DNA of 64,000 nucleotides from Candidatus Latescibacterota bacterium (GTDB lineage Bacteria; Latescibacterota; UBA2968; GCA-2709665). The stretch's first letter is position 1, and every line of letters begins with the position of its first letter. Made by a program: the position numbers and the translations under genes. The DNA is taken from assembly GCA_963662665.2 (NCBI GenBank), contig CAXXJS010000032.1, forward strand, positions 1-64,000, in the 5' to 3' direction. The notes beneath the pieces were generated by a model that was not told where the DNA came from, ran no database searches, and saw only the letters and a list, made by a program, of their open reading frames with translations. Below, in pieces: positions 8,401 through 26,269 of the stretch.

Positions 8401-9150
8401 GAGTTCAAGACCCTGATTGATGTAACGAATCGACCGTTCTCCATTGGCATTGACGTCGTGACGCTCGCCGAAAGCCAGACTGTATCAAACGACATCAGAA
8501 CCACGAAAGTCATATCGTTCAATGCTGCCCCGCCACCTGCTGCTTTTTCGATTTCCCTGGACGGCAATAGTGCCGCTGGCGATCAGGGCATCACAATGCT
8601 CGACGTGGCCACCGGATCGGTTGTCCCGATACAGCTTTTTGGTAATGATATCCGGGGTGTAAGCGGTGTTTCCGCCCGGTTTGAATATGACGCGGCTCAG
8701 GTCGGTTATGGCGGGTTCGATCCGGGAAGCCTGTTGCCGAATGCGCAGGTACTCGCGGTGCCTGCGACGAATCCAACCGCCATTGATATCAACGTCGTGT
8801 CATTTGGCGGACAGGTCGCGGTCGATAGTGGAATGGTTGGCAGCGTTCGTTTCCGCACGACGGACGGGTTTTCGGGTTCGACGATTCGGATGGTAAGCGC
8901 TGAGATCGGACGCGGAGACGAGCGCGAGAGCATAACGCCATCTGATATCGCCGTCACCCTGAGGCTGGCTGAACCGTCGCCGGACTTCAACGGAGACGGC
9001 AGGGTCGATTTTGGCGACTTTGTGGCGTTTGGCATGCACTTCGGCGCAAGCCAGGGCGATGCGAGATACGACGCGAAGTACGACCTGGATCAAGACGGCA
9101 TGATCGGATTTGGAGACTTCCTGATATTCGGGCAGGAATTCGGCACGTAA
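5489..9150 (+). pseudogene. 3' part of the IS-interrupted gene: two WD40 beta-propellers, an Ig-like (Big_1) domain, cohesin-like domains and a C-terminal dockerin/EF-hand pair; could be translated alone from the ATG at 5503
   Basis: Many GH...V.SVAFSPDG..LASGS.D..LWD repeats, TTDANGRA Ig-like segment, and the duplicated DFNGDGRVDFGDF...DLDQDGMIGFGDF motif. It is in frame with 2955-3786 once the IS is removed. Confidence 0.85.
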
Positions 9151-9771
9151 CGTCGAATTCATGCCGACACTGACATTCGACATTTCGAAAGCAGAATTGT
9201 GGAAGCAGCCGACGTGATTCGTGGAAGACACTGAGCGCTACGGGCGGATCCACACGCTTTGTTTGGATGTTGTGAGAAGCAAGACGATTACATCACCGTC
9301 TTTTCATTCTTAAAAAACGAGGGGATCTTTGGATCGCCCTCGTTTCTTCTTTGGAGCTGGTAGCCAAACGTGCAGGAAACCCCGAACTCTCAGGTGTAGC
9401 AAAACGCGACACCGGCGGTTCGATGCTCAACTGTACTGAATTCCCTTTATCTGATGCAGGGTAGGAGGCAGGTTGATTACGACATGAAACCCTTCGCTCA
9501 CCATCGATGTCCGACGCCAAGACCACGCGTCCCCTGTTGTTCCGAAAAGCAGCGAGAGAGCGATCAGCTCTCAGTAATCGGCTTGAACCAAGAATCCAAT
9601 CCGTTGTTGACGTCAGCGCCGTGAAGAGGCAGGACCAGAAGTGGCGCAGCGAGGGCAAGGATGCCCTCGCTCCCGGGAAAAGCAGCGGAAACAGCTATAA
9701 GCGACTGGCAGTCAGCTAAACCCGGTGGACGTAACGTCCACGCGTAATCAATTCGCGGATGCCCGGCTTAT

Positions 9772-9794
9772 GTAGGGGCGATCGGCCGGTCGCC
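9772..9794 (+). repeat. GTAG-type REP-like palindrome
   Basis: GTAGGGGCGATCGGCCGGTCGCC: GTAG followed by a GC-rich hairpin in intergenic DNA. Confidence 0.45.
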
Positions 9795-9816
9795 GGCTCG
9801 ATGCCTGACGGTAGAC

Positions 9817-11787
9817 TCAAACGGCCTCCGTTACCGCCCCTCGCATCTTCAGGATGTACTTCGCCCGGTCCAGCGGCGAAATCCCCTTGTAGGGCCGCAT
9901 GACGCCCTCGCCCGGCGGGCACGGCTCATATCCGTCGTACTTGAAGGAGAATTTCGCCGTTCCGCCCGTCAAAGAGTTCAGCCGGATGGGATAGTCCATC
10001 GAAGTCGCCAGGGGTACTCGTCCTGTAACCGATAGCGCACCTCCGTCTGCCTCTACCGGATCGAAGGCGCCGCGCGCGTTTATGATATCCGACGTGATCC
10101 TTCCAACGTAGGTCTCGGCCACCGAGATTTTGAACGCCAGTATCGGTTCGAGCAGAATCGACCCGGTCTCCGTCAGCCCTTTCAACACCGCGATATTCGT
10201 TGCGAGTTTGAAATTGCCCGCGCGGCTGTGCAGAACGTGATCGCTCCCCTCCACCAGGGTAATCTTCAGATCCGTGACTTCCCATCCCTTGATTCCCTGC
10301 CTGAGCGCGCCCTCTATCGATCTTTCGATCTCCTTCTGAAATCGTGCCTTGATGTCGTTGACGCCGACCTGTGACGAATAAATCACGCCGCTTCCCGGCT
10401 CGCCCGGTTCGATCCGATACTTCACGATGGCCCAACACGGCTTCGGCATCGTGTAGCGCTCGACGCCGAAGCCGACCGACGCAGGTGTCTCCTTGTAAAT
10501 GACCGTTGGGTCACTAAAACGCGTCTTGATGTCAAATCGCGTATCGAGCATCTCCTTCAGAATCTCCGCTTGAACCGTGCCCATGATCTTCACATGCAGT
10601 TCGCGTTCATTATCGAACCATGTAAAATTGAGGTGCGGGTCTTCGCTCGACAATTGCTGCAGCGCCCCGGCCAGTCGAGCGTGATCCACCAGGTCTTCCG
10701 GGACAGCCTGTACCGACAGCAGGGGCTCTCCGAGTTCACAGGACCCGGGGACGGGGCCCGGGTCGCCAAGAATGTCGCCGATCTTCGCGTCCGGCATCCC
10801 GCAGAAGAAACCGATGTCGCCCGCGGAGAGGGCGCCTGTGTCCTCGTATCGATTGAGATAGGACTTCTTGATCTGCGTAATCTTCTCGTCGCGATCCGCC
10901 GTAACGTTCCGGATGACATCCCTGTTATGGAGTCGTCCTGTATAGAGGCGAACGCCGGCGATGCGCCCGAGTTTCGGATCGTGGTCAAGCTTGAACACCA
11001 CGCCGGAGGGCGGACGTGAGGCGTCGGTATTCGCATCGGGAAACCACGCCACGATCCTACCCAGCAGTTCCTCCGTTCCGATCATGTTCTTGGCCACGCC
11101 GCAAAGTACCGGAAACAGCTCTCTCTTTGCCGTGCAAGCCGCAATCACCTTCTCGATCTCTGCTCGTGAAATTGGCTCCTCGTTCAGGAATCGCTCCAGG
11201 AGCGCGTCGTCCTTCGCGGCGACGCCCTCTGTCAGGGCGGCTTCACCGTCCGGGTCAAGCTCGGCGATGCGCGCGTCCGACTCGCCTTCCTCTTCCGGCT
11301 GATTGACCGGAATCACGTCGGGCGAAAACCGGCGCTTCAGATCATCGACGACCTTCGCCGAATCCGCGCCGATCCGATCCAGTTTGTTCACGAACAGGAT
11401 GACGGGTACGTTCAGCGCTTCCAGCGCGACCCATATCGACTCCGTCTGGGCCTGGATGCCTTCGACCGCGGACAGAACGAGCACGGCGCAGTCCAGCACC
11501 CGAAGAGATCGTTCGACTTCGGCGGAAAAATCGACGTGCCCCGGCGTGTCGATCAGGTTGATCGTCACTCCCTCCCAAACGAATGACATCGCCGATGCCC
11601 GGACCGAAATCCCTCGCCGCCTTTCCACGTCGAGCGCATCGGAGAGACTGGTCCCTTTGTCGACGTTTCCTGGCGAGCGGATGGCGCCGCTCAGGTACAG
11701 GAGATTCTCAGTCACCGTCGTCTTTCCGGCATCGACGTGCGCGAGGATACCAAGATTGCGAATTCTTGAGGGATCTTCAGGAGGCAC
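9817..11787 (-). CDS. TetM/TetW/TetO-like ribosomal protection protein (EF-G-like translational GTPase)
   Basis: IRNLGILAHVDAGKTT, ERRRGIS, INLIDTPGHVDF, NKLD and EF-G domains III-V. Start estimated at the GTG at 11787 (the ORF extends to 11847). Confidence 0.85.
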   Translation of the reverse strand: MPPEDPSRIRNLGILAHVDAGKTTVTENLLYLSGAIRSPGNVDKGTSLSDALDVERRRGISVRASAMSFVWEGVTINLIDTPGHVDFSAEVERSLRVLDCAVLVLSAVEGIQAQTESIWVALEALNVPVILFVNKLDRIGADSAKVVDDLKRRFSPDVIPVNQPEEEGESDARIAELDPDGEAALTEGVAAKDDALLERFLNEEPISRAEIEKVIAACTAKRELFPVLCGVAKNMIGTEELLGRIVAWFPDANTDASRPPSGVVFKLDHDPKLGRIAGVRLYTGRLHNRDVIRNVTADRDEKITQIKKSYLNRYEDTGALSAGDIGFFCGMPDAKIGDILGDPGPVPGSCELGEPLLSVQAVPEDLVDHARLAGALQQLSSEDPHLNFTWFDNERELHVKIMGTVQAEILKEMLDTRFDIKTRFSDPTVIYKETPASVGFGVERYTMPKPCWAIVKYRIEPGEPGSGVIYSSQVGVNDIKARFQKEIERSIEGALRQGIKGWEVTDLKITLVEGSDHVLHSRAGNFKLATNIAVLKGLTETGSILLEPILAFKISVAETYVGRITSDIINARGAFDPVEADGGALSVTGRVPLATSMDYPIRLNSLTGGTAKFSFKYDGYEPCPPGEGVMRPYKGISPLDRAKYILKMRGAVTEAV

Positions 11788-12263: not shown

Positions 12264-12494
12264 ATGAATGGGAAAATCTTCAACGAAGACAATATGCGAT
12301 TGGTACTTTTACTATTGGCCATCTGGGGTCTGATGTGGAATTTTTCCTCCGGAATCAATCAAAGAATAGACAGATTGGAGGATAAATTGGAGACTAAATT
12401 CGATACCGTTGACAGGAAATTAGAAAGAATAGATGCGCGCCTGGACGCCTTCGGGGAACGCATCGCCGCAAACGAAGCAAAACTCAAAGAGTAA
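12264..12494 (+). CDS. Small membrane-anchored coiled-coil hypothetical protein (76 aa)
   Basis: GGAGG RBS, one hydrophobic helix (LVLLLLAIWGLMW), then heptad repeats (RIDRLEDKLETKFDTVDRKLERIDARL). Confidence 0.7.
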   Translation: MNGKIFNEDNMRLVLLLLAIWGLMWNFSSGINQRIDRLEDKLETKFDTVDRKLERIDARLDAFGERIAANEAKLKE

Positions 12495-12524
12495 AATTCC
12501 ATTACATCCGAAACATTGTCAACC

Positions 12525-12561
12525 GCCTGCCAGTAAATCACATTGGCAGGCTTTGTTATTT
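12525..12561 (+). terminator. Rho-independent terminator
   Basis: GCCTGCCAGT-loop-ATTGGCAGGC hairpin followed by TTTGTTATTT. Confidence 0.6.
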
Positions 12562-12695
12562 CCCTTTCTTCCCCGTAATCCTTGCCTACATCGACGCATT
12601 TTCTTAAAATAACAACGCTGCCCTTATCGAATTGGAACGGTGCGGGCGCGGTATTTCCGTCCGATCATTGCCTTTTCAGGCAACAGGAGAATCTG

Positions 12696-13979
12696 ATGCA
12701 GAGAGATTTCGCATTTGAGATGGGGACTTCGAATTTGCGGTTCGGCCCGGGCGCGACGAGGGAAGTGGGAATGGATCTGTCGGAATTGGGCGCCGGGCGG
12801 GTGATGCTGCTAACGGATCCCAACCTGGTGGACCTGCCGCCGGTGCGGACGGCGGCAGACTCCCTCAAACGCGAGGGAGTCGATTACGCGCTTTACGAAC
12901 GGGTACGGGTAGAACCCACGGACGTTTCTTTCCGGGAAGCCATTGACTTTGCATTGGATGGGAATTTCGATGCCTTTGTGGCTGTGGGCGGGGGCTCCTC
13001 GATCGATACGGCGAAGGCCGCGAATCTCTATTCCACGTATCCGGATGATTTCTACGCGTACGTGAACGCGCCGATCGGGAGCGGCAAGCCGGTTCCCGGT
13101 GCGCTCAAGCCGCTGATCGCGATTCCGACAACCGCGGGAACGGGCAGTGAGACCACCGGAGTGACGATATTCGATCTCTCGGAAAGACACGTAAAAACCG
13201 GTATCGCGCACCGCCGCCTGAAGCCCGCGCTGGGCATCGTGGATCCCGAGAACACGCGGACGATGCCGCCGGTTGTGGCCGCGTCTACCGGCCTGGACGT
13301 GCTTTGCCACGCCCTCGAGTCATATACGGCGATCCCGTACGATCAGCGGCCTTTGCCCGAACGGCCGATCCTTCGGCCGGCTTACCAGGGTACCAATCCC
13401 ATCAGCGATATGTGGGCGCTCAGGGCCATCGAGCTGGTCGCGGAAAACATCGTGCGGGCGGTTGCGGACCCGGAGGATGACGAGGCCCGCTCGAACATGA
13501 TCCTGGCATCGAGTATGGCGGGAATGGGGTTCGGCAACGCGGGCGTTCATCTGCCTCACGGGATGTCCTATCCCGTATCGGGGATGGTGCGTGCTTACAA
13601 ACCCGAGGGGATGGTGAGCGGTCATCCCATCGTACCCCATGGGATGTCGGTCTTCCTGAACGCGCCGGCGGCCTTTCGATTTACGGGCCCGGCCTGCCCC
13701 GACCGGCATCTGAAGGCAGCGACATTGCTGGGCGCCGATATTTCGGACGTGAGAAATCCTGAGGCGGAGGCGGGCGGAATACTCGCGGAACGCATTGTCG
13801 CACTGATGAAGCGCCTTGAAATGCCGAACGGACTGTCGGCAATCGGTTTTACTGAAGCGGATGTGCCGGCGCTGGTGGAGGGCACGATGCCGCAGCATCG
13901 CGTGACCAAGCTGTCGCCGAGGCTGGCCGGCAAAGAGGATCTTGCGGCTTTGTTCAAGGACTCACTGACGGCCTGGTAA
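12696..13979 (+). CDS. Hydroxyacid-oxoacid transhydrogenase (ADHFE1/HOT-like, iron-containing ADH family)
   Basis: AVGGGSSIDTAK, IPTTAGTGSE, GLDVLCHALES, FGNAGVHLPHGMSYPVSG and VPHGMSV motifs. AGGAG RBS before the ATG at 12696. Confidence 0.9.
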   Translation: MQRDFAFEMGTSNLRFGPGATREVGMDLSELGAGRVMLLTDPNLVDLPPVRTAADSLKREGVDYALYERVRVEPTDVSFREAIDFALDGNFDAFVAVGGGSSIDTAKAANLYSTYPDDFYAYVNAPIGSGKPVPGALKPLIAIPTTAGTGSETTGVTIFDLSERHVKTGIAHRRLKPALGIVDPENTRTMPPVVAASTGLDVLCHALESYTAIPYDQRPLPERPILRPAYQGTNPISDMWALRAIELVAENIVRAVADPEDDEARSNMILASSMAGMGFGNAGVHLPHGMSYPVSGMVRAYKPEGMVSGHPIVPHGMSVFLNAPAAFRFTGPACPDRHLKAATLLGADISDVRNPEAEAGGILAERIVALMKRLEMPNGLSAIGFTEADVPALVEGTMPQHRVTKLSPRLAGKEDLAALFKDSLTAW

Positions 13980-14006: not shown

Positions 14007-15017
14007 ATGAAAAATACTGATAACCTGCCCCCGTTCCCCGAGGGGTGGTATCTGGTAACAACCCGCAATGCCCTTGTGCGAGAGAAACTGGTCGAGAAGA
14101 CCTGGATGGGTGAAGAAATCGTCGCCTGGTGCGACGAAGAGGGCCGTGTTTGCGTGGCCGATTCCATATGTCCGCACCTGGGCTCGTCCCTGGGACCGGA
14201 CGTTGGCGGGAAGGTATGCGACGGCCGCCTGGTCTGCCCGTTTCACGGCTTTGAATTCGATACGACCGGTCAATGCGTCGCGACACCGAACGCCCCGGCG
14301 CCCAGAGCCGCGAAACTGAAGATATACGAGACCAGAGAGATCCTCGGCATGGTCTTCGCCTGGTTCGGGAACGGCGGCCGGCCGTCACACTGGGACCTTC
14401 CGGATGAGCCGCCCATCAGCGCCGAGTGGAGCAAACTGGGATTCCGGCGTCTCCGCTTCCGCAGCCATCCCCAGGAAACAGCGGAGAACTCCGTGGACCT
14501 GGGACACCTGCGCTACGTACACGGCTACGACGAGGTGACCCCGGTGGGTTCGGTTACCGTGGACGGCGCCTACCTGAAGAGTCGTTTCGACTTCAGACGC
14601 GTCCGCAGTATTCTGGGTATGAAAGACCTCGTGTACGAAATCTCCGCCGTCACCCATATTTATGGACTGGGCTACTCCTACGTTGAAATCCACGAAAAAA
14701 CCATCGATATGCACGCGAGACTCTGGGTACTCCCCATACCTGTTGACGGCGCCGTCATCGATCTCGTTCTTGCCGGCCAACTTCGGGAATTACGAAAACC
14801 CCGGCGGTTCATCACGGGCCTCGGTTTCGTCCCTTCGAAGCTGCGCCAGAGGCTGATGAATTATATTCTACTGTCACAGCAAAAACGGGATGTGCTGCAG
14901 GACGTGGTGATCTGGGAGAAGAAACGGCATCGGTCTCCCCCCAGGCTTTGTCGTTCCGACGGTCCCATCGGTACCTACCGACGCTATTGCCGGCAGTTCT
15001 ATCCGGAGAAGCCGTAA
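14007..15017 (+). CDS. Rieske non-heme iron oxygenase, KshA/Neverland(DAF-36)-like steroid-acting subfamily
   Basis: Rieske CPHLG...CPFHG, mononuclear iron site ENSVDLGHLRYVH, and C-terminal QDVVIWEKK...DGPIGTYRRYCRQFY. Confidence 0.8.
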   Translation: MKNTDNLPPFPEGWYLVTTRNALVREKLVEKTWMGEEIVAWCDEEGRVCVADSICPHLGSSLGPDVGGKVCDGRLVCPFHGFEFDTTGQCVATPNAPAPRAAKLKIYETREILGMVFAWFGNGGRPSHWDLPDEPPISAEWSKLGFRRLRFRSHPQETAENSVDLGHLRYVHGYDEVTPVGSVTVDGAYLKSRFDFRRVRSILGMKDLVYEISAVTHIYGLGYSYVEIHEKTIDMHARLWVLPIPVDGAVIDLVLAGQLRELRKPRRFITGLGFVPSKLRQRLMNYILLSQQKRDVLQDVVIWEKKRHRSPPRLCRSDGPIGTYRRYCRQFYPEKP

Positions 15018-15075: not shown

Positions 15076-16455
15076 TCAGGCCCTCGCCTTCCTGAACCAC
15101 CAACCATACAGCATGCTTCCATAGTAATTGAACGTCCGCCTTGCCTCGGGATCGTCGAAGGGATAGTCCGCGCCGATCTGCGTTGCGGCGGCAAGCCCGC
15201 TGACGAAGCACGTCTCCTGGCTGTTGATCAGCGTGTGCGCACCGCAGTGCCAGGTCCGCTTCCTGCCCTGAATGAAGCGGAACAAAGGAACGAGCAGGGC
15301 AACGTGGCGCACGTCGTGTACAATGTGCTGGAACCACCACCGTCCAATGATCTTCTGTTCATCGATCCGGCTGATCGGGTTGTAGGTCACCAAACAGGGC
15401 CTATCAGACCGTTTCGCCCACGGCTGCTGGTTATGCATGATGTACGTGATTTCATAATTGTCCGGTCTTACGCCGTATTGCTCGATGTGATTGCTGCGCG
15501 TCGTCAGGGGTTTCACTTCGTTGCCCGGAAGGACCGATGCGTCGGAGTGGACAATCGTATGGTTGTGAAGTTCGCTCTCGTAGCGTATGGACGAGAGAAT
15601 GTAGCGTTCCAGCATGGTGGGTTTGTCCAGGATCATCAGTGTCTGGTTCGCATTGCACGCGAAGATCACGTCGTCGAACGTCTCCTTAACACCTTCCTCG
15701 TCCTCTACCACAACGTGGGAGGACCGGCGGTAAACCCTTCGGACGGGACGGTTGAGGCATATCCTGTCCCGGAATCTCGAAGCCAGGTTCTCGTAGATGC
15801 GTCGTGTTCCCTGGTCCCATGTCTGCATGGGCGTGGCGGTTTCGATATCGAAAAATTCGAGATATCTCGTAAAGAGGGCCGCAGGCATATCGAACACGTT
15901 CGTCGCCATCAGGAAGTTGACAAACATGGGCTTCAGTACCTTGTACCGGAAGTCCCCGGAAAAACCTGCCAGATTCAGAACCGTCCCCATGCTGATGTAG
16001 TTGAACGGATTGAGGGCGTTCAGAAACTTCGATCGGGAGCGGGTCAGCCAACCGAACTTATGCAACCGCTTCAGGACCCGTTGAAACCTGGCAATCTCGA
16101 ACTGCAGCTGGTCCCGGATATCCGAGTCGAAATCGTGCGCATAGATGCCTCCGCGGTATTTCACGCTGTAGCTGAATTTGGTATCGATAAGTTCGATGCC
16201 GAACTGTTCCATCAATAACATGACATGCAGATATACCGACGGAATACAGGCAGTGACCGAAATGTCGAATGGAATGGAGCTTCCGTCATCCTGCGGCATA
16301 TCGGCTGTAACCGCATTTCCGCCAATCCGGTCCTGGGCTTCGAACAGCCGGAATTCAAACCGTTCCGGGTGATGGTGCAGTGCCCAGGCGGCTCCCAGAC
16401 CCGAAACGCCTCCGCCGATAATGGCGATCCGACGTCGCTGGTCACTCTTTCCCAC
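15076..16455 (-). CDS. FAD-dependent oxidoreductase (amine-oxidase-like, resembling lipid-modification-associated NAD/FAD-binding proteins)
   Basis: IAIIGGGVSGLGAA dinucleotide fold, LFEAQDRIGGNA, and C-terminal IQG...WHCGA...NSQETCFVSGL. Confidence 0.8.
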   Translation of the reverse strand: MGKSDQRRRIAIIGGGVSGLGAAWALHHHPERFEFRLFEAQDRIGGNAVTADMPQDDGSSIPFDISVTACIPSVYLHVMLLMEQFGIELIDTKFSYSVKYRGGIYAHDFDSDIRDQLQFEIARFQRVLKRLHKFGWLTRSRSKFLNALNPFNYISMGTVLNLAGFSGDFRYKVLKPMFVNFLMATNVFDMPAALFTRYLEFFDIETATPMQTWDQGTRRIYENLASRFRDRICLNRPVRRVYRRSSHVVVEDEEGVKETFDDVIFACNANQTLMILDKPTMLERYILSSIRYESELHNHTIVHSDASVLPGNEVKPLTTRSNHIEQYGVRPDNYEITYIMHNQQPWAKRSDRPCLVTYNPISRIDEQKIIGRWWFQHIVHDVRHVALLVPLFRFIQGRKRTWHCGAHTLINSQETCFVSGLAAATQIGADYPFDDPEARRTFNYYGSMLYGWWFRKARA

Positions 16456-16843: not shown

Positions 16844-17083
16844 TCAGACGACAAGTTCGCGCCTTTGCTCGGCAATGTGAAACTTCAGCTTCTTGCTTGG
16901 TTTCATCGACGGTATCGGGCTGAATTGGAGCATATAGTTCGCCGGCGACACCTCGATCGTAAAGTAGTGCGCGACCATCAGCACGTTGACGGCCAGTTGC
17001 AATTCCAGCCACCTGGAGCCAAGACACGTGTGCGTGCCAAGCCCGAACGGCGCATACCCGGGACTGCGGTGCTCGTCTCGAGG
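16844..17083 (-). pseudogene. C-terminal remnant of a second cytochrome P450 paralog
   Basis: Manual translation gives PRDEHRSPGYAPFGLGTHTCLGSRWLELQLAVNVLMVAHYFTIEVSPANYMLQFSPIPSMKPSKKLKFHIAEQRRELVV*, collinear with the C-terminus of 18268-20295. There is an in-frame stop just upstream and no start codon. Confidence 0.85.
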
Positions 17084-17192: not shown

Positions 17193-18227
17193 CTATAGAG
17201 GCTTGCGAGCCAGGAAACAGTACAGCGGCGTAAAGATACCCGCCTTGCCGCCCGCGACATAAGCCTCCGCGGTCCGGCCCAGAAGTCGGACCACTTCAGT
17301 GGAGCCCTTCGGAAAGAGCCGCAGTACTTCAGCCAGCTTCGATCCTGCAATGACCGCCTTGCGGCCCCACGGAAGCCTGCGCAAAGCGTTTCCCAATGTC
17401 CCATGGCGCCTCTCCATGGGTTGATACCAGGGTGTGGAGGGTACTTCCGAGACGTCCATGTCCATCCCTTCCATGACGTGGAATCCCGCGGCTTCGAGCG
17501 CGTGATTCACTTCCCCGAAGGTCGCGATGTCCTTCAGCGCAACACCGCGCATGAGATCCTGCTCGATGGCCTGGTGCCGGTCGTCGTTCGGATCGAACTT
17601 GCCGGTCAGACACATTTCCTGACCCCAGAACAGGGCACCGGGCTTCAGCACGCGGAATACCTCCTCGAAGCAGCGTTGCTTGTCCGGCGCATGGCACGTT
17701 GATTCCATGGCATAACCCCGGTCGAAGGTGTCGTCCTCGATGGCGCTCATGTCCATAAAGCTGCACGTCTCGAAATCGACCATGTGATCGAGCCCCGCCT
17801 CGGCGTTCAACCTTTTCGCCTCTTCCACCTGGTTCTCGCAGATGTTGATTCCTACAACCCTGACACCGGCCTCAAGGACGACGCGGCGCATGGGGGCGCC
17901 GATTCCACAACCGACGTCGACCACCGACATACCCTGTTGCAGCTCCAACTTGGAGATCATCACCCTCTGATGCCGGACCTGAGACTCCTCCAGACTCTCA
18001 TGAGGCGTTAGGGGCGCGAAGTGCAGGGACTCGCCCCAGCCCCACACCATGAACCCGCTGCAAAGGTCGTAATAGTTTTTTACTGTTTCAGTGTGATCGT
18101 ACCCGCCCGCGCCACCGGACTCCGGCGCCGCCCGGTCAAGCCAGCCATCGAAGTGCTGCACTCGACGTGCGACGCCCAGCCCCCTGTACGCATCTTTCAG
18201 CATTCCCGACAGTTTTCCCAACCGCAT
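17193..18227 (-). CDS. Sterol C24-methyltransferase-like protein (ERG6/SMT family)
   Basis: YYDLCSGFMVWGWGESLHFAP (SMT region I), VDVGCGIGAP (SAM binding), YAMESTCHAP, and Sterol_MT_C-like GGKAGIFTPLYCFLARKP. Confidence 0.85.
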   Translation of the reverse strand: MRLGKLSGMLKDAYRGLGVARRVQHFDGWLDRAAPESGGAGGYDHTETVKNYYDLCSGFMVWGWGESLHFAPLTPHESLEESQVRHQRVMISKLELQQGMSVVDVGCGIGAPMRRVVLEAGVRVVGINICENQVEEAKRLNAEAGLDHMVDFETCSFMDMSAIEDDTFDRGYAMESTCHAPDKQRCFEEVFRVLKPGALFWGQEMCLTGKFDPNDDRHQAIEQDLMRGVALKDIATFGEVNHALEAAGFHVMEGMDMDVSEVPSTPWYQPMERRHGTLGNALRRLPWGRKAVIAGSKLAEVLRLFPKGSTEVVRLLGRTAEAYVAGGKAGIFTPLYCFLARKPL

Positions 18228-18267: not shown

Positions 18268-20295
18268 TCAGGCCGACAGCTCCCGTCTCTGCTCCGAGAT
18301 GCGGAACTTCAGCTTCTTGCTCGGCTTCAGCGACGGAATCGGACTGAAACGGAGCTTGTAATTCGCGGGCGACACCTCAATCTTGAAGTAGTGCGCCAGC
18401 ATCAGCAAGTTGGCCGCCAGGTGCAGCTCCATCCACCGGGTGCCGAGGCACTTGTGCGTGCCCAGCCCGTACGGGGCGTAACCGGGGCTGCGATGCTCAT
18501 GGCGGGGCGGCAGGTAGCGGTCGATGTCGAACTTCCAGGGGTCGGGAAAGACCTCGCTCATGTAATGCGTGGCGGTCATGGCGATGTGGATCCGTTCCCC
18601 CATAGGCAGCTCGTAGTTCTCGACCACGCACGTATTCATCACGTTCCGAATGGACATGGAGACGATCGGGTACATGCGCAGGCACTCCATGAGGAAGCGG
18701 TGCGTCACGTCGATGTTGGCTGGGGTGAAGTCTTCTCTCCCGGGATCGCCCTTGGCGAACAGGGCATCTGCTTCGTCCTGGATTCTGGCGTAGAGATCTG
18801 GCTGCGACGCCATGGCGTAGACGACGAGGCTGAACGTATCGCCGAGGTACACGCTGGCAATCAAGGCCGCGGAAAAGGCGAAGAGCAGGTTGGATTCCGG
18901 GAGGAATTGCGGGTCGCTCGCATGCAGGCTGAGATAATCGTCCACCAGGTCCCGGGGGCTGTCCGCCCGTTGGGCGGGGGTATGGATGCCCTCGACTCGC
19001 TGCATCAGTGTGTCCAGGACTTTCGCCCGGCGTCTCATGCCCGGGGTGTTCAGCGTGAATTTGGGCAGGAGCCTGGCGATGTGCACGCTGAGGGCCCGTT
19101 CCTTGTAGATCATCAGGTCGTCCATGAGGTCCTGGGTATCGATGCTGAGGAACAGTGGCGAGAGTTGGGCGTTCACCATCGCCCGGCACATGGACGTGGC
19201 GCGGTAGGAGTCCCCAACCTTCAAGCTCGCCATGTACTTGCGCCCCTGACCGTAGAGCTTGTCCAGCTGCCCTCCCAGCCTCCCTACAGAATAGGCCGGG
19301 GACAAGGACCTGCGAAGCCGGAAGTGATCGGCGCCGTCCAGGGCAGGCAGGACGCCGGACGCGCCGTAGACCTTCTCGAAGTCGCTGAAGTAGTCCCTGG
19401 CTCTCAGGTACATGCGCCCGCGCTTGTGCACCCAGCGGTTCGTGTCGAGTCCGGCCAGGAAGATCATGGGCTTCGAGAAGGGTGGGCGGACCTGGAACAC
19501 CGGACCGTACTCCTCCGCGAGGTTCCCGAAAAGCGCGTTGAGGTTGCCGTCCCGAATATGCGGGTTCAGCAGCAGCTTGGACAGGGAAACCGTCGGAATC
19601 TTTCTGGTAAGCGGAGGACGTTGGAGGGCCGGGCCGGCGAGGTTTTGAGAGACCGCAGCGGCCAGGGAGCGGCCGATCAGGTCCATCTTGCAGATGAATT
19701 CGATGCGCTCCTCGGCCTCGTCGTCGAGATGGAATATGAAACGGAAGACGTCGCAGGTATTGACGAGGCAGATGATGATGACATCTCTCGGATCGGGGAT
19801 TTCGTCGGTGAAGATGACCCTGCTGATCCGCGTTCTTATGAACTGGCCCGCAGTGCCCTCCTCCGACTTGCCGCCCAGTTCCCCGCGCCAGACGGTAGGA
19901 GCCAGTGTCCAGAATTCGCCGTCGTGATATTCCAGGACCTTGAGGTCAACCAGGCGATCCAGAACCGTATCGATGATCGACTCCGCGTGGGGGGCGAGCC
20001 GCTCGATCCAGTATTGGGCCTTCCGTTGAACAGATTCGGCCGCAATTTCCTTGAGAATGGGGTCTAGGGCAGCGTTGCCCGTCTCCGTCGGGTTCACGAG
20101 GAAGAGCGACTCCATGTCCGTGTCAATCCGCGACAGGAGGGAGAGTTCGGCAAGCACTGCCCCGACCACCGCGCAGTTCAAATGCCAGCCGGGCAACTGA
20201 TGAAAGTAGCCAGTCTCCTCGTTGAGGAGCATCAGGATGAGTTCCTCAGTCAGACTATGCGGATGGGTCGTCAAACCTTCGGTAGGATCAGCCAT
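18268..20295 (-). CDS. GPP34 (GOLPH3/Vps74-like) domain fused to cytochrome P450
   Basis: N-terminal LTEELILMLLNEETG...GAVLAELSLLSRI is GPP34-like. The P450 part has ExxR (ECLRMYP), FDIDRY and heme ligand YGLGTHKCLG. GGAGG RBS before the ATG at 20295. Confidence 0.8.
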   Translation of the reverse strand: MADPTEGLTTHPHSLTEELILMLLNEETGYFHQLPGWHLNCAVVGAVLAELSLLSRIDTDMESLFLVNPTETGNAALDPILKEIAAESVQRKAQYWIERLAPHAESIIDTVLDRLVDLKVLEYHDGEFWTLAPTVWRGELGGKSEEGTAGQFIRTRISRVIFTDEIPDPRDVIIICLVNTCDVFRFIFHLDDEAEERIEFICKMDLIGRSLAAAVSQNLAGPALQRPPLTRKIPTVSLSKLLLNPHIRDGNLNALFGNLAEEYGPVFQVRPPFSKPMIFLAGLDTNRWVHKRGRMYLRARDYFSDFEKVYGASGVLPALDGADHFRLRRSLSPAYSVGRLGGQLDKLYGQGRKYMASLKVGDSYRATSMCRAMVNAQLSPLFLSIDTQDLMDDLMIYKERALSVHIARLLPKFTLNTPGMRRRAKVLDTLMQRVEGIHTPAQRADSPRDLVDDYLSLHASDPQFLPESNLLFAFSAALIASVYLGDTFSLVVYAMASQPDLYARIQDEADALFAKGDPGREDFTPANIDVTHRFLMECLRMYPIVSMSIRNVMNTCVVENYELPMGERIHIAMTATHYMSEVFPDPWKFDIDRYLPPRHEHRSPGYAPYGLGTHKCLGTRWMELHLAANLLMLAHYFKIEVSPANYKLRFSPIPSLKPSKKLKFRISEQRRELSA

Positions 20296-20330
20296 CGGTC
20301 TTCGCCTCCCTGCAACATGCATGAAGTGCA

Positions 20331-23300
20331 TTACGTGGCGCGGGCGCCAGAACGGTCCCGCGAAGCAGTCAGATGCCGATGTGTGGTGTAGAGTGCGGGA
20401 ACGACCATCATGAGTAAGGCAGTTGTAAAGAGTATGCCGCAACCGAGCGATGCGGCGAACGGGACGAGGAACTGGGCCTGGATGGCCCGTTCGAGGATGA
20501 GGGGCGTGAAGCCGAGGAACGTAGTCACGGAAGTGAGCATGATCGGACGAAAGCGCCCCTTGGCGCCCTCGGTGATCGCGGTTCGCACCGGAGCACCTTC
20601 CTCGAGTTTCTGATCGATGAAATCGATCATCACCAGGGAATCGTTCACCACCACGCCACTCAGGCCGAAGACGCCCATGAAGGATACCGCGCTCAGGGCT
20701 ACTCCCAGGACCCAGTGGCCCAGGATCACACCGACCAGACCGAACGGAATGACGGCCATAATAATGAACGGCTTTGTATAGGATCGGAGGGGGATGGCGA
20801 GAAGAGCAAAGATCATGATCAGGGCAACCGCGAACCCGCGGTACAGCGCATCCAGGGATTCGAGCTGCTGTTGTTGCTCCCCTCCGAAACTGTATGTCAG
20901 GTCAGGGTGCGCGGCGGTCAGGTTCGAGAGGATCGATTTTGCAAGGATGTCGTTGGCTTTGTCGCCGGAAATCACCGAAGCATCGACGTCCGCCGTGACC
21001 GCGACGACCCGCTGGCCGTCCTTCCGCCGGATGGCCGGCGGCGACAGGCCCGGGCTCAGGGAGGCCACACTCATGACCGGGACCTCGGCCCCGCCCGGGG
21101 TACGGATCAGGTACCCTTCGATATCGGTAATGGAATTCCGCTCTTTCTCGGGCAAGCGCACGTAGACCCGGACCTCCTCCCGGCCGCGCTGCACCCGAAC
21201 CGCCTCGGCGCCGAAGAACGCGGCGCGCGTCTGCCCGGCCAGTTCCTCGAGTGTGAGACCGAGGGTCCGCGCTTCCGGTCGCAGCTCCAGTTGCACTTCC
21301 GGGACGCCCGGAGCGTGATCCGTACGTATGTCGTAGACACCTCCGATGCCGCGGAGTCCATCGACCACGGAGTCCGCAATAAGGGCGAGGCGCTCCGGGT
21401 CCGGATGGGACAACACGGCCTCCACCGGGTTGCCCAGATCGAAGACCTCGCCGGTGTAGGTGACACCGCGCACATGGGGAAGCACACCCACCTCCTCCCG
21501 CCATGCCTGCACGACCTCTCCGGTGGAGATCTCTCTTTGTTGGGCGCCCAGGAGTTTGAACTCGATGGTGGCGATATTGGCTTCCGGATTGAGGGTTGGC
21601 TCCGGATTTAGCCCGCCCTCGAGTCTCGATCCCTGTCCGACGGTCACCGTTACGCCGGTCAGTAGCGGTGGCGCGTCCGCAGGCCGGCCGCGCGAGAGTC
21701 GTTCGATGACCCGGAGGCCTGCGGCCTCCAACTCCTGTGCCACTTCGTGCGTCCTCTGAGCGGTAGCCCCATCGGGCATCTCCAGGACGACCGTTGCGAA
21801 ATCCCCCTCCACGTCTGCGGCCAGCGTGGTGGGAACGATTCCGGCGGACAAGAGGGAGATGCTCAGCACGAGAATTCCCACGGCCCCTGCCATCGTCACC
21901 CCGGGCTGGTCCGTCGCGAACCGCAGGGCCCGGTCGAGAGGCCCTTGCACGAACCTGTTCAACAGCGCGTCGACACGACCCTGGACCCGCGCGAAGAATC
22001 GGTCGAAGGCATTTGCCGGCGCCCACTCCGGGCCGTGCAGGTGGGACAGGTGGTTGGGCAGCACCAGCAGCGATTCGACCAGCGAAACCAGCAGCATGGC
22101 GATCATGATGATCGGCAGGGCCCGCCACACGTCACCGATGCCCCCTGGGATGAAAAGTAACGGGACGAAGGCCACGACGGACGTCAGAACAGCAAACGTC
22201 AACGGCACCTTGATCCGCCGTACGCCGCGGATCGCGGCCGTGACCCCGGGTGTTCCCCGGTTCCGTTCAGATTGAATGTGCTCGGCCACGATGATGGCAT
22301 CGTCGACGACAATTCCTATGGCGAGGACGAAGGAAAACAGGCTGATGGTGTTGATGGCCACGTCGAATGCCATCATGACTGCCAGGGCGCCGATGCCCGA
22401 AACGACGAGACCGACGGCGACCCACATCGCCAGCCGGATCTGGAGAAACAGGCTGAGGGAGACCAGCACCAGCAGAAGGCCCAACACGCCGTTCTTGAGG
22501 AGAAGATAGGCGCGCTCCTCATATACTTGGGATTCGTCATTCCATATGGTGATGTCCACGCCGTCGGGCAAAGCCGGCATCACCTCGTTCGCCACGTGCT
22601 CCCGGACGGCCGTGGCAACGTCCATCACGTGTTCGCCGTCGGCCCGGAAAACCTCCACGAATACCGCGGGATGGTTCTGATGCCTGACAATCAGGTCGGC
22701 TTCCTGAAAATCGTCGCGGACTTCGGCAATATCGCCAACGCGCAATACCGTGCCATCACTGTTGCTGAGAAGGACGATCTCTTCGAAATCATGCTGATCA
22801 TAGTTCTGGCCGATGGTGCGGATCCTCACCTGGGATTCCCGCGTATCGATGCTGCCGGCGGACAGGTCCAGGGAACTCCGACGAATCGTGTTGGCGATGT
22901 CATTGAGGGTAAGTCTGAGCGCTCTGAGGCGATGAAGCGGCACCTCGATGGAGATCTCGTAGCTCCTGACGCCGCTGACCTCCACCTGGGAGACGGAGGG
23001 AAGTGTCTTGAGCTCGTCCTCGATCTGGAATGCCAGTTCCTTCAGCGAGCGCTCCGATACATCGCCGTAGACAATGAGCCGCATCATGCTCTGACGGTTC
23101 GTCATCTCCCAGAACAGGGGACGTTCGGCGCCGCCGGGGAACGTCTGAATACGATTGACAGCGGACTCGATATCGTCCAGGGCCCGAGCCATGTCCGTAT
23201 CGAAATCCATTTGAACCCGCACTGAGGCAATACCCGGGGCCGCAACGGACTTGACCGCCTTCACGTCGTCCAGCCCGCTGACCTGGTCCTCGATCCTAAC

Positions 23301-23525
23301 GACGATCGACTCCTCCACCTCCTCCGGCGTGGCCCCGGGATAGGCCATCGAGACTTCGATATGGTAGAATGGGGTGACGTGCCAGGCTTCCCGCTCGATA
23401 CCGGTCAGCGACACCAGGCCGGCGGCGATGATGGCCCACATCAACAGGTTGGCGGCCACGCCGTTGCCGGCCATATAGGCGATCGGACCGGGCCGTTCGC
23501 CGTGGTTGTGTCCGTTCGTACTCAT
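20331..23525 (-). CDS. RND efflux permease (AcrB/AcrD/AcrF family)
   Basis: 1064 aa with YPGATPEEVE, GIVVDDAIIVAE, GVVVNDSLVMID and RFRPIMLTSVTT. Confidence 0.95.
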   Translation of the reverse strand: MSTNGHNHGERPGPIAYMAGNGVAANLLMWAIIAAGLVSLTGIEREAWHVTPFYHIEVSMAYPGATPEEVEESIVVRIEDQVSGLDDVKAVKSVAAPGIASVRVQMDFDTDMARALDDIESAVNRIQTFPGGAERPLFWEMTNRQSMMRLIVYGDVSERSLKELAFQIEDELKTLPSVSQVEVSGVRSYEISIEVPLHRLRALRLTLNDIANTIRRSSLDLSAGSIDTRESQVRIRTIGQNYDQHDFEEIVLLSNSDGTVLRVGDIAEVRDDFQEADLIVRHQNHPAVFVEVFRADGEHVMDVATAVREHVANEVMPALPDGVDITIWNDESQVYEERAYLLLKNGVLGLLLVLVSLSLFLQIRLAMWVAVGLVVSGIGALAVMMAFDVAINTISLFSFVLAIGIVVDDAIIVAEHIQSERNRGTPGVTAAIRGVRRIKVPLTFAVLTSVVAFVPLLFIPGGIGDVWRALPIIMIAMLLVSLVESLLVLPNHLSHLHGPEWAPANAFDRFFARVQGRVDALLNRFVQGPLDRALRFATDQPGVTMAGAVGILVLSISLLSAGIVPTTLAADVEGDFATVVLEMPDGATAQRTHEVAQELEAAGLRVIERLSRGRPADAPPLLTGVTVTVGQGSRLEGGLNPEPTLNPEANIATIEFKLLGAQQREISTGEVVQAWREEVGVLPHVRGVTYTGEVFDLGNPVEAVLSHPDPERLALIADSVVDGLRGIGGVYDIRTDHAPGVPEVQLELRPEARTLGLTLEELAGQTRAAFFGAEAVRVQRGREEVRVYVRLPEKERNSITDIEGYLIRTPGGAEVPVMSVASLSPGLSPPAIRRKDGQRVVAVTADVDASVISGDKANDILAKSILSNLTAAHPDLTYSFGGEQQQQLESLDALYRGFAVALIMIFALLAIPLRSYTKPFIIMAVIPFGLVGVILGHWVLGVALSAVSFMGVFGLSGVVVNDSLVMIDFIDQKLEEGAPVRTAITEGAKGRFRPIMLTSVTTFLGFTPLILERAIQAQFLVPFAASLGCGILFTTALLMMVVPALYTTHRHLTASRDRSGARAT

Positions 23526-24733
23526 GGCGACTCGCCAGTCTCGGTCCGGACGGGCATTCCGTCCGTTGCGAATTGAATCCCGCCGGTGATCACCGCCAAA
23601 CCGTGTTCCAGCGAACCCGTCACGAAGGCTTCATCGTCGACACGCTGCAGAACCCGAACCGGTACGATAGTCACAACGCCGCTTTTCACCATCCAGACCT
23701 CGTCGCCGGGTTTCAACGATGCCCGCGGCACTTTGAAAAAGCCTTCCGGCGCCAGGCCCTCGATTTCCACCCGGACAAACTTGCCCACCAATAGCGGCGG
23801 ATGACCGCCGGGACTGACGACGCCGTTCGTCGCAACGCCCGCGGAAAACGGATTTGGCACGCGCACGATGACGTCGATGGTGCGCGATTGCTCGTCCAGG
23901 GTTGCCTCGGCTCGATCCACGTAACCTTCCCATTCGTATTTCGCATCGCCGTGCCGGGCGACCACCCTGGCCGGCACTTCACGTTTACCGTCTCCCGCCT
24001 TCAGGTTCCAGAGTCCCGGGATCATGGCGGCATCGGAATCGGACAAAGGCACGACCACTTCCACCGCATCGGCGGCGAACAGCCGGCCCACCGGCCGGCC
24101 TGGGTTGACGACCTGTCCCGGATCCACAGATTCCTCACGCACCAGACCGTTAAAAGGCCCGGTGATCCGGGTTCTGGACAGGGCGAGTCTGGCGTCGGCA
24201 AGCCTGGCCTCATCGCGACTCAACGCGGCCCTCGCCGCGTTCAATTGGGGCTTTCTCAGCGTGAGAGGATGCGTATCGGAAGACGAAGCCTCGTCCCCTC
24301 TTTGCTCCGCGTAGCGTTCATATTGCGAGCGGGCAATCGATGCCTGTTCCTGCTCCTTGAGCAAAGCCACCCGGCTGGCCGCGAGATTGGCCTCCGCTTC
24401 CTGAACTCTGAACTGATAATGGACCTCTTCGATTCGGAACAGGGGCTGTCCGGCCTTTACCCGACCCCCGCTCTTGAATCCCGGATCCACCCAGACGACC
24501 CTGCCGCCCACTTGAGGGACGATATCGATCTCCGCGCTTGGCCTCACCGTACCGGACCCGAAAACCGGTATAGGCCCGGACCCGGCTGTAACCGGGCCCG
24601 TCTGCACGAACGGTATCTGGGGAGGCTGTTCGATCCGCGTCGGTTCGGGCGCCAGTGATTGCAGCAGGGCAGCCAGACCCACCGAAAACACGATTATGGC
24701 GCAGGCAATCAGAATGCTGGATTTACGGGACAT
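23522..24733 (-). CDS. RND periplasmic adaptor (membrane fusion protein)
   Basis: N-terminal TM, lipoyl-like PQVGGRVVWV, coiled hairpin and LSRTRITGPFNG. ATGA overlap with the RND gene. Confidence 0.93.
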   Translation of the reverse strand: MSRKSSILIACAIIVFSVGLAALLQSLAPEPTRIEQPPQIPFVQTGPVTAGSGPIPVFGSGTVRPSAEIDIVPQVGGRVVWVDPGFKSGGRVKAGQPLFRIEEVHYQFRVQEAEANLAASRVALLKEQEQASIARSQYERYAEQRGDEASSSDTHPLTLRKPQLNAARAALSRDEARLADARLALSRTRITGPFNGLVREESVDPGQVVNPGRPVGRLFAADAVEVVVPLSDSDAAMIPGLWNLKAGDGKREVPARVVARHGDAKYEWEGYVDRAEATLDEQSRTIDVIVRVPNPFSAGVATNGVVSPGGHPPLLVGKFVRVEIEGLAPEGFFKVPRASLKPGDEVWMVKSGVVTIVPVRVLQRVDDEAFVTGSLEHGLAVITGGIQFATDGMPVRTETGESP

Positions 24734-24739: not shown

Positions 24740-26269
24740 CTACTCCGTTGGTGGTCGGGAGATACGTTGGGTGGGCGGTTCCTGCCCGAGGGTCTGTCGG
24801 GCGTCCGGGGTCCACGCGCCGCCCAGCGCCCGGTGCAGGGCAAGACGGGCCAGACCCAGATCGCGTTCCGCGGCTGCAAGTACGGATTCCGCGGCCAACC
24901 GTGCCTGCACCGCCGTCAGGAATACCTCATATTCGCCCACACCCGAAACATAGCGTTGCTCCTGCAATTCTGCTTCCGCTTCGGCCTCCTCCGAAAGGGA
25001 AGCCAGCAGCGAATGACGGCGGCGGCTGGCCGCCAGTCCGGCAAGGGCGGACTCAACCTCACTGACGGCTGTGACCACGGATCTCCCGTAGGCCGCGACA
25101 GCCTCTTTCATTCTGGCCTCCGCGAGAGCAACATTGCCGCGAAGACGGGAACCCTGGAAAACGGGTCCGAGCAGGTTCATGCTCAGATTCCGGAACCATT
25201 GCTCCGGGTTGAACCACTCGCTCGATTCCGTACTCTGCAGCCCGATGGATCCGTGAAGGGACAATCGCGGCGCCAGGTCCGCGCGGCGCGCGCCAACCTG
25301 GTATCGGGCTGCTTCCATGCGCTGTTGCGCCGCGACGACGTCAGGCCGCTGCGTCAGCAGATGGGTCGGTATGCCTGGCGGAACAGGTTTCCGGACCTCT
25401 TTACGTGTCAGGGAATCCGGCAGTAATTGCGCCAGGTCCCTGCGGGGATCTCCCATGAGCACGCGGAGCCGCCCCTCTGAATTCGCCAGCAGCGCTTCGA
25501 TCTGCGGCAGTTCGGCTTGCGCGTTGCGTGCATCCCGTCGTGCCCTGTGTAGCCCGCTCACATCGGTAAGCCCGCGGTCGTAACGAGATTCGGCCAGGGC
25601 CTCCCGTTGACGATAGATCTCTGCGATTTCCCCGGCCAGCCTTTGTTGATGGCGCAGGTTCACAATTTCAAGGTAGGTTCGCACGGTTTCGGACAGCACC
25701 CCCATCCGGGCGGTCCGGTAGTCCGATTCGGAAGCAAGGTGCCCGGCTCTCGCGGCGAGACCGTCGTTCCGGTTGCGCCCCCAGAAATCCAGTTCGTAGG
25801 CGAATTCCGCACCAACAGTATACGTAGTAAGGCCAAGTCGATCGGGGAGGACGATTCCGATCGGGGTACCGGATCCCGAATCCAGTCCCAGTTCGTCCAG
25901 CTGCGCACCTATACCGGCATTGGTGGGTGTATCGAATTCGTTGACGCCGGCTGTCGGCTGAAGCGACGGAAACATTGGCCCCCATGCGATTCGCGCTCGC
26001 GCCCTGGCCTGTTCCACCCGGGCAACCGCGCCGGCCAGGTCGAGGTTCGATGCCAGTACGTCATAGATTACCCGGTCGAGTACCGGGTCGGCGAACGTCG
26101 TCCACCACTCGCGCCGCTCGATTGAACCGGCAACGTCAGCCCCGACAGACGCGTCGGTCAGTTCCGCAACCGATTCGGGAACCGGGGGAGTCGTGCGCGG
26201 CGCCAGGGTGCAGGCCGAGATAAGTAGACCGGCAATCGCCGGCGTCAGTCTTTTTCGCGAGATATGCAT
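24740..26269 (-). CDS. Outer-membrane efflux lipoprotein (OprM/NodT/TolC family)
   Basis: Lipobox LISAC, WWTTFADPVL, YELDFWG, LLTQRPDV and LHRALGGAW. Confidence 0.93.
   Translation of the reverse strand: MHISRKRLTPAIAGLLISACTLAPRTTPPVPESVAELTDASVGADVAGSIERREWWTTFADPVLDRVIYDVLASNLDLAGAVARVEQARARARIAWGPMFPSLQPTAGVNEFDTPTNAGIGAQLDELGLDSGSGTPIGIVLPDRLGLTTYTVGAEFAYELDFWGRNRNDGLAARAGHLASESDYRTARMGVLSETVRTYLEIVNLRHQQRLAGEIAEIYRQREALAESRYDRGLTDVSGLHRARRDARNAQAELPQIEALLANSEGRLRVLMGDPRRDLAQLLPDSLTRKEVRKPVPPGIPTHLLTQRPDVVAAQQRMEAARYQVGARRADLAPRLSLHGSIGLQSTESSEWFNPEQWFRNLSMNLLGPVFQGSRLRGNVALAEARMKEAVAAYGRSVVTAVSEVESALAGLAASRRRHSLLASLSEEAEAEAELQEQRYVSGVGEYEVFLTAVQARLAAESVLAAAERDLGLARLALHRALGGAWTPDARQTLGQEPPTQRISRPPTE

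Follow-up and report, generated by a model that had tools for sequence, protein, structure and literature searches.

The closest described relatives of the gene considered here are bacterial proteins with the domain GPP34, known from the eukaryotic Golgi proteins GOLPH3 and Vps74. Ferreira et al. (2025, Microbiome 13:4; PMC11706023) distinguished short GPP34 proteins from a long form, GPP34_L; 656 of the 663 long proteins combine GPP34 with a cytochrome P450, and the remaining ones are rare fusions to a Rieske domain or an ABC ATPase. We analysed one such gene in a stretch of 64,000 nucleotides (the window; positions 1 to 64,000 of contig CAXXJS010000032.1, assembly GCA_963662665.2) from a bacterium filed as Candidatus Latescibacterota. 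The gene occupies positions 18268..20295 of the minus strand. Its architecture is that already published as GPP34_L, and the window protein is a further member of this family. Based on the conserved gene neighbourhood, the scarcity of cyclases in the genomes that carry the fusion, and the sequence features of both domains, we consider it on balance probable that the protein is a cytoplasmic, membrane-docked P450 tailoring host-derived sterols.

According to the main text of Ferreira et al., GPP34_L has been reported only from sponge symbionts, where it occurs across many phyla. Among Gemmatimonadota, it is encoded by 92.6% of the 54 genomes from symbionts and by none of the three from free-living bacteria; GPP34 genes were expressed in 45 of 107 genomes from Aplysina aerophoba. 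The proposed function is that of a secreted effector that binds host phosphatidylinositol 4-phosphate (PI4P) and blocks phagosome maturation. The words "sterol" and "methyltransferase" are absent from that main text, and its analysis of flanking genes concerns the short form; the supplements may hold neighbourhood data. On the sterol side, the cluster described in PMC7074536 comes with no mention of a P450, and a 2025 preprint on bacterial sterol methyltransferases mentions neither P450 nor GPP34. A literature search found no paper joining GPP34, cytochrome P450 and sterol in bacteria, and none joining Gemmatimonadota with sterol methyltransferase.

The fusion gene and its product

The longest open reading frame (ORF) on the minus strand, 18268-20442, opens at a TTG codon within the 3' end of the upstream gene. 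The likely start of the fusion is the ATG at 20295, as it is preceded by the candidate Shine-Dalgarno box GGGAGG, and the gene of the upstream permease stops at 20331, 35 bp away. The resulting protein has 675 amino acids (stop codon 18268-18270). Homologous fusions have 673-686 amino acids and can be aligned from residue 1. As claimed in an initial annotation made from the sequence alone, a full GPP34 domain and a P450 domain are contained in one polypeptide, and both Pfam profiles score above their curated cut-offs. The same two domains were found in all 120 listed clusters of relatives. The AlphaFold2 model of the full fusion, built on an alignment of 44 sequences, is confident as one body (mean predicted local distance difference test, pLDDT, 89.5; predicted template modelling score, pTM, 0.87). 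No signal peptide, hydrophobic N-terminus or membrane helix was observed in the protein sequence. The family alignment was constructed by MAFFT from the query, four of its close relatives and 39 full-length fusions of 653-711 amino acids chosen among the 150 best representatives.

The P450 domain

The P450 domain covers approximately residues 240-675 (18271..19578, minus strand) and matches PF00067 with E 1.8e-33 (116.5 bits, cut-off 22.8). The phmmer matches include CYP120A1, CYP725A4 and CYP51, all at about 1e-17. Structural comparison by Foldseek yielded target-normalised template modelling (TM) scores of 0.74-0.83 over the listed matches (0.82-0.83 for CYP184A1 and Methylococcus capsulatus CYP51, about 0.80 for BM3, 0.74-0.76 for CYP3A4), with identity of only 14-20%. 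The search of the ESM Atlas with the P450 part retrieved only generic "cytochrome P450" clusters. The possibility that this domain is a CYP51 was rejected: the identity is about 20%, the E value of about 1e-17 is no better than those of CYP120A1 and CYP725A4, and Tyr-Leu replaces His-Thr.

The ExxR motif (E537-C-L-R540; 18676..18687, minus strand) and the heme-ligand cysteine (Cys616 in the loop GTHKCLG; codon 18448..18450, minus strand) are intact, as had been noticed initially, and E537, R540 and C616 are unchanged in all 44 aligned fusions.

The I-helix is different. The motif (A/G)Gx(D/E)T is typical of P450s, although not obligatory. The corresponding segment ALIASVYLGDTFS (residues 477-489; 18829..18867, minus strand) has no acid-alcohol pair in either the phmmer or the MAFFT alignments, and so the non-canonical I-helix of the initial annotation is retained here. 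In the AlphaFold2 model the helix is continuous over residues 468-496. In the phmmer alignments, A480-S481-V482-Y483-L484 sits on A-S-Y-D-T of CYP725A4 and on A-G-H-H-T of M. capsulatus CYP51. In the family alignment, A480-S481 is placed on A-G, followed by a deletion of one residue, and Y483 falls in the threonine column. This column contains Thr preceded by D, E or H in 28 of the 44 fusions. The one-residue deletion is present in 12 fusions, including the query lineage, with Tyr (10 sequences) or Asn (two sequences) in the threonine column. Thus, as far as can be judged from the alignment, the query lineage lost the acid-alcohol pair from an ancestor that had it. We also considered the "D-T" of the motif GDT as a displaced acid-alcohol pair. 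This was rejected, as position 487 is variable in the 80 orthologous loci described below (Ala in 50, Thr in 25, Met in five), and the motif reads GSG, GAG, GSA or GNS in the next relatives. The lost residue, the lost pair and the conserved tyrosine together suggest a reaction other than standard proton-relay hydroxylation, for example desaturation. The desaturation or rearrangement named in the initial annotation is a conjecture drawn from the missing pair.

P450 catalysis requires cytoplasmic reducing partners. Pfam scans of the larger ORFs of the window revealed no ferredoxin or reductase adjoining the fusion gene. There are seven Fer2 matches in the genome, none of them on the contig of the window, and no Fer4_15 matches in the genome, in agreement with the original remark that no redox partner is adjacent.

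The GPP34 domain

The GPP34 domain occupies residues 15-216 (19648..20253, minus strand), and the six-frame search produced a match at the same coordinates. The match to PF05719 covers positions 1-199 of the 201 positions of the profile (E 1.8e-29, 103.7 bits, cut-off 29.1). The N-terminal 232 residues alone have no phmmer match in the PDB even at E 10, and a profile of 11 bacterial GPP34 domains was required to obtain the match to GOLPH3 (3kn1) at E 1.3e-8. The N-terminal domain was also modelled on its own (pLDDT 80.7); for this model, the top eight Foldseek matches are all GOLPH3 or Vps74 (best E 2e-9, TM 0.65-0.67), and the next match has E above 0.1. Both the profile match and the GOLPH3 fold thus confirm that the N-terminal region is GPP34. 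A strand pair is modelled at residues 121-131 of the fusion.

The PI4P pocket of GOLPH3 is formed by W81, R90, R171 and R174 in human numbering (Wood et al. 2009, PMC2806290). In the profile alignment these positions correspond to P35, V44, E105 and I108 of the fusion, that is, none of the four residues is kept; the columns of R171 and R174 are less secure, as the alignment crosses a 10-residue insertion in GOLPH3 nearby. The commonest residues in these columns among the 44 fusions are P, A, D and R, and only the R174 column often contains Arg (20 of 44). The bacterial GPP34 domains of the 44 fusions show another group of near-invariant residues: R56, D78, W96, R114, R156 and R197. Thus the targeting to PI4P assumed initially by analogy with GOLPH3/Vps74 is not supported, and the domain considered here is probably not a PI4P reader.

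The same genome contains a stand-alone short GPP34 gene on contig 28 (215220-215819, minus strand; L004:9176-9901; 241 amino acids, Pfam E 1e-48). It is situated between genes for a xanthine/uracil permease and a sulfate permease, and no P450 was found among the neighbours scanned.

Genes adjoining the fusion

The gene located 40 bp downstream of the fusion (17193..18227, minus strand) encodes a sterol methyltransferase homologue of 344 amino acids. It matches Sterol_MT_C (59.5 bits, cut-off 21.7) and Methyltransf_11 (64.2 bits), both above the cut-offs, and also CMAS. The first two are the domains by which bacterial sterol methyltransferases were identified by Brown et al. (2023, PMC10070321), and thus the neighbour would be classified as a candidate sterol methyltransferase. 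According to tblastn, it is the sole copy in the genome.

Upstream of the fusion there are genes of a resistance-nodulation-division (RND) pump, all on the minus strand. These are the permease of the AcrB family (20331..23525; ACR_tran, 517.8 bits), the periplasmic adaptor (23522..24733; HlyD_3; TIGR01730, 163 bits) and the outer-membrane efflux factor of the NodT type (24740..26269; OEP; TIGR01845, 253 bits, cut-off 210). Thus the order on the minus strand is outer-membrane factor, 6 bp, adaptor, 4-bp overlap, permease, 35 bp, fusion, 40 bp, methyltransferase. Such short spacing fits co-transcription. The scan for promoters and terminators, which is a weak test, found fewer sites than in shuffled sequence and none between these genes.

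On the other side of the methyltransferase, the minus strand encodes a protein of 459 amino acids from the flavin adenine dinucleotide (FAD) amine oxidase family (15076..16455; Amino_oxidase and NAD_binding_8), whose closest solved relative is LkcE (1e-27). Two genes lie beyond it on the plus strand. One encodes a Rieske oxygenase of 336 amino acids with a catalytic domain of the KshA type (14007..15017; Rieske and KshA_C, 81.9 bits); its closest solved relative is KshA, a 3-ketosteroid 9-alpha-hydroxylase (3.9e-20). The other, upstream of the Rieske gene, encodes an iron-containing alcohol dehydrogenase of 465 amino acids (12582..13979; Fe-ADH and ADH_Fe_C). The lipid link proposed in the initial annotation is strengthened by this context, which is strongly sterol- and lipid-related (methyltransferase, RND pump, KshA-like Rieske protein) and is kept across phyla.

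The 737-bp gap between the methyltransferase and FAD oxidase genes contains a relic of a second fusion allele (16853..17083, minus strand). It retains 77 codons, corresponding to residues 597-673, with 80.5% amino acid identity to the intact gene. Its nearest counterpart (85.7%) is the allele of locus L069, in which the FAD oxidase gene follows the P450 and no methyltransferase was detected between them. This suggests that a resident allele was replaced through recombination by an incoming module composed of the P450 and the methyltransferase.

Conservation of the gene set

The neighbourhood was compared in one genome per species. The scan identified 201 loci with a relative of the fusion, and the best 80 were kept; the counts below refer to these 80. 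Neighbours were detected by tblastn with the proteins of the window, requiring that the match cover at least half of the query and, for the methyltransferase, that it lie within 10 kb of the fusion. As several of the loci are short contigs, some missing neighbours reflect truncation.

Over their full length, the fusion proteins of these loci share 65-92% identity with the query. The Rieske oxygenase is the most frequent neighbour (69 loci), followed by the methyltransferase (65), the FAD oxidase (44), the RND permease (28), the adaptor (20) and the outer-membrane factor (11). The alcohol dehydrogenase probably does not belong to the core set, since it is linked in just four loci. The 28 loci with the RND permease all belong to the Gemmatimonadota-type clade, plus L069. 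In the genomes compared by coordinates, a methyltransferase match occurs within a few kb of a fusion copy in G001, G004, G014 and G015. In G015 (Dehalococcoidia), the second GPP34_L copy likewise adjoins a methyltransferase with the Sterol_MT_C domain.

The transporter differs in other phyla. In all five annotated loci from these (Dehalococcoidia/Chloroflexota L046 and L044, Acidimicrobiia L031, Gammaproteobacteria L033, Binatia L067), a transporter of the MMPL family with matches to sterol-sensing/Patched domains was found 0.04-1.3 kb from the fusion. In L033, labelled as Gammaproteobacteria, the fusion is flanked by this transporter and two LolA-like lipoprotein-carrier genes (9088-9909, 12364-13146). 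The arrangement resembles a lipid shuttle to the outer membrane.

By the labels of the submitters, the 80 loci come from at least nine phyla: Gemmatimonadota, "Latescibacterota", Chloroflexota/Dehalococcoidia, Binatia, Thermodesulfobacteriota, Acidimicrobiia, Gammaproteobacteria, Rhodothermales and Vicinamibacteria. These labels are the submitters' own, and some may be wrong. Proteins that are 88-92% identical and encoded in the same gene order are assigned to "Candidatus Latescibacterota" or to "Gemmatimonadota" depending on the record (L005-L084), and so some labels are probably inconsistent. Metagenome bins make up many of the related records; the taxa that are named agree with those in the main text of Ferreira et al. 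The quick tree of 77 rows consists of two shallow clades, both with mixed labels, and requires 13 label changes versus the minimum of eight. This is compatible with transfer of the gene between phyla, but falls short of proof.

Sterol-making capacity of the carrier genomes

The genome of the window (4.86 Mb, 66 contigs, 92% complete) has no match above the cut-off to either of the squalene/oxidosqualene cyclase domains of Pfam. A weak cyclase-like match on contig 28 (24 bits, in a frame of 296 amino acids) is below the cut-off. There are only two P450s in this genome. The second one, on contig 10, was considered as a candidate CYP51 and rejected, since it matches CYP184A1-like proteins best and lies among genes that have nothing to do with sterols. 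A homologue of the ERG4/ERG24 sterol reductases was found on contig 8 (72126-73184, plus strand; L003:9049-10188; 379 amino acids). Its flanking genes are unrelated; an esterase and a methyltransferase come after it.

The census comprised 14 control genomes and 15 carrier genomes reached via their fusion loci. The carriers measure 3.3-6.3 Mb, and 13 of their 15 records bear the label "chromosome: 1". PF13243, the one cyclase model applied to each carrier, exceeded the cut-off in two of the 15, both Dehalococcoidia; the genome of the window is not one of them. Sterol_MT_C was found in 13 carriers and ERG4/ERG24 in eight, and neither was found in any control genome. As the bacterium of the window apparently has no cyclase, the sterol would come from outside, presumably from the host.

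Other features of the window

A gene for a type I polyketide synthase of 3419 amino acids (39322-49581, plus strand) is located 13 kb from the fusion set. It has matches to ketosynthase (two stretches), acyltransferase, dehydratase, C-methyltransferase, enoyl-reductase, ketoreductase and carrier protein domains. Presumably, it is reminiscent of the methyl-branched fatty-acid synthases of sponge symbionts. A eukaryote-like WD40-repeat protein of 1215 amino acids (5503-9150, plus strand) adjoins a DDE transposase gene (4040-5404, minus strand). Near the other end there is a fused restriction-modification methylase of the MmeI/Eco57I type (1030 amino acids; 59661-62753, minus strand). The G+C content of the first and last approximately 8 kb of the window is 0.50-0.53, compared to about 0.60 elsewhere.

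Possible functions

These observations are best accommodated by a cytoplasmic enzyme acting on host sterols. The bacterium would be of the Gemmatimonadota type, of the kind found in sponges. The GOLPH3-fold domain may hold the P450 at the inner face of the membrane, pass a membrane lipid to it, or dock it to the transporter. By analogy, it could play the role that the N-terminal membrane anchor has in eukaryotic sterol P450s. The few long proteins in which, according to the main text of Ferreira et al., GPP34 is instead joined to a Rieske domain or an ABC ATPase fit a docking module of the cytoplasmic face better than a secreted lipid reader. The P450 would act on the host sterol in concert with three enzymes, namely methyltransferase, Rieske oxygenase and FAD oxidase. 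This transferable set would modify the sterol, most likely in the side chain, and the RND or sterol-sensing transporter would move the product across the envelope. The lipid-directed P450 with unusual chemistry of the initial annotation therefore gains from the gene context on the one hand and from the atypical I-helix on the other, and as a whole it is plausible.

Several observations weigh against this interpretation. The nearest solved relatives of the P450 are generic (CYP184A1, BM3 and CYP51, at 14-20% identity). P450s without the I-helix threonine can still hydroxylate. Membrane docking by the GPP34 domain is conjectural, and the lipid pocket of GOLPH3 is not conserved. The genome in which no cyclase was found is incomplete, and the absence in other carriers was judged by a single Pfam model. 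No methyltransferase was found within 10 kb of the fusion in 15 of the 80 loci, several of which are short contigs. The closest solved relative of the FAD oxidase, LkcE, is a polyketide enzyme from lankacidin biosynthesis, and the RND pump scores below the NCBIfam cut-offs and belongs to the general multidrug type. The Rieske gene was tried as SdmA, the 4-beta-methylsterol monooxygenase, and rejected (35.5 bits, NCBIfam equivalog cut-off 600). The substrate of each gene product in the set is putative. Finally, the second GPP34-P450 copy in G001, a close relative of the window's genome (L085:9554-11533, 64% identical to P0139), has a canonical I-helix and is flanked by genes for an EryCIII-like glycosyltransferase, a leucine-rich repeat protein of 1147 amino acids and a PhyH dioxygenase, with no sterol genes. 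Thus different GPP34-P450 copies may serve different pathways.

The substrate may instead be a hydrophobic compound other than a sterol, for instance an alkaloid, a polyketide or a terpenoid of the sponge, that is detoxified or tailored. The P450 and the Rieske protein would oxidise it, the methyltransferase would methylate an olefin, and the pump would expel the product. Relatives of sterol methyltransferases do act on other isoprenoid olefins, the AcrB-type pump serves general efflux, the FAD oxidase resembles LkcE, most carriers have no cyclase, and the large polyketide synthase is not far away. However, the methyltransferase scores well above the cut-off for Sterol_MT_C and also has Methyltransf_11, the combination used for bacterial sterol methyltransferases in the study of Brown et al. 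Further, the Rieske protein has the catalytic domain of the steroid KshA type, the transporters of other phyla have matches to sterol-sensing domains, and ERG4/ERG24 homologues are present in eight of 15 carriers and in the window's own genome. We therefore regard a non-sterol substrate as unlikely.

The sterol hypothesis may be stated in a more specific form, in which the fusion is a side-chain desaturase acting at C-24(25) or C-22. CYP710A and CYP61, the sterol C-22 desaturases, are side-chain P450s of the CYP51 lineage that partner the C-24 methyltransferase, and their I-helix is not known to contain the conserved threonine; the resemblance to the fusion P450 is a possible lead. The P450 would accept a saturated host sterol, such as cholesterol, and make or process the olefin required by the methyltransferase. 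In this way, symbionts of many phyla that have no cyclase could turn the cholesterol of the sponge into 24-alkyl sterols, which would leave the cell via the linked RND or sterol-sensing transporters. The GOLPH3-fold domain, instead of reading PI4P, would be a bacterial module for presenting lipids or for docking to a transporter. Taken with all its details, this scheme is speculative and rather improbable.

In the published proposal, the symbiont releases the GPP34 protein, which binds host PI4P on the phagosome and so prevents phagosome maturation, the P450 being an unspecified helper. For the protein considered here, this proposal seems improbable. It is consistent with the restriction of the architecture to sponge symbionts and with the distribution in Gemmatimonadota and expression in A. 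aerophoba cited above. Moreover, the N-terminal domain truly has the GOLPH3 fold, and eukaryote-like WD40 repeats are encoded in the same window. However, all four residues of the PI4P pocket are replaced, and arginine is frequent in the family in only one of these columns. There is no signal peptide or hydrophobic N-terminus, although secretion systems that do not use a signal peptide may still apply. The intact cysteine loop and ExxR motif, together with the 65-92% identity across phyla, point to selection for catalysis with cytoplasmic electron donors, and the neighbours are lipid enzymes and transporters rather than secretion genes.

Lastly, catabolism of host sterol as a carbon source, via uptake, oxidation of the side chain by the P450 and KshA-like ring attack, would agree with the closest solved relative of the Rieske protein and with the alcohol dehydrogenase gene preceding it, but is very improbable. 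A C-methyltransferase extends the side chain instead of degrading it, and the pump, with its outer-membrane factor, is of an exporter type. Other genes of steroid degradation were not seen in the 64-kb window, and the alcohol dehydrogenase is so rarely linked.

The published effector reading was derived solely from the eukaryotic namesake, and the linkage to sterol genes supplies a testable enzymatic hypothesis for GPP34_L. The analysis also offers an initial functional setting for bacterial proteins with the GOLPH3 fold, as well as a P450 lineage whose I-helix has a deletion and bears a tyrosine. Bacteria that alter host sterols, having no pathway of their own, would be overlooked by surveys based on cyclases. 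This bears on an open question of geobiology, namely which organisms make the sponge sterols with alkylated side chains; the fossil steranes of these sterols serve to date early animals. Should the desaturase scheme prove true, host and symbiont would jointly produce a part of the unusual sterol inventory of sponges and, with it, a part of the sterane biomarkers to which this inventory gives rise.

Comparison with known systems

Eukaryotic GOLPH3 and Vps74 (PDB 3kn1, 9qpq, 2zih) have the same fold as the N-terminal domain of the fusion, according to Foldseek, and match the same family profile. However, the residues of the PI4P pocket differ, the bacterial domain is joined to an enzyme, and bacteria have no Golgi.

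CYP51 is among the best matches of the P450 domain both in sequence and in fold. This includes the CYP51-ferredoxin fusion of M. capsulatus (PDB 6mcw, 7jj1; PMC7947880), a bacterial sterol P450 that, as described there, occurs as a natural fusion and in this respect is similar to GPP34-P450. Unlike CYP51, the fusion has no His-Thr in the I-helix, its partner domain is N-terminal and not a redox protein, and most genomes carrying it have no cyclase.

In the sterol clusters that Brown et al. (2023) and Kelly et al. (2022, PMC9531527) described from sponge metagenomes, a methyltransferase with the Sterol_MT_C and Methyltransf_11 domains adjoins a Rieske oxygenase in genomes of symbionts from the same phyla as here. 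These clusters are presented as de novo pathways with a cyclase, whereas 13 of the 15 carriers considered here have no cyclase match above the cut-off.

The most similar system is GPP34_L itself, as the window protein has the same domain order, size and range of phyla. Unlike the main text of Ferreira et al., the present analysis includes the gene neighbourhood, the census of cyclases, the pocket residues and the variant I-helix. The linkage to the sterol gene set, the scarcity of cyclases in the carriers, and the loss of the PI4P pocket in a protein with no signal peptide are thus additions to the account given there.

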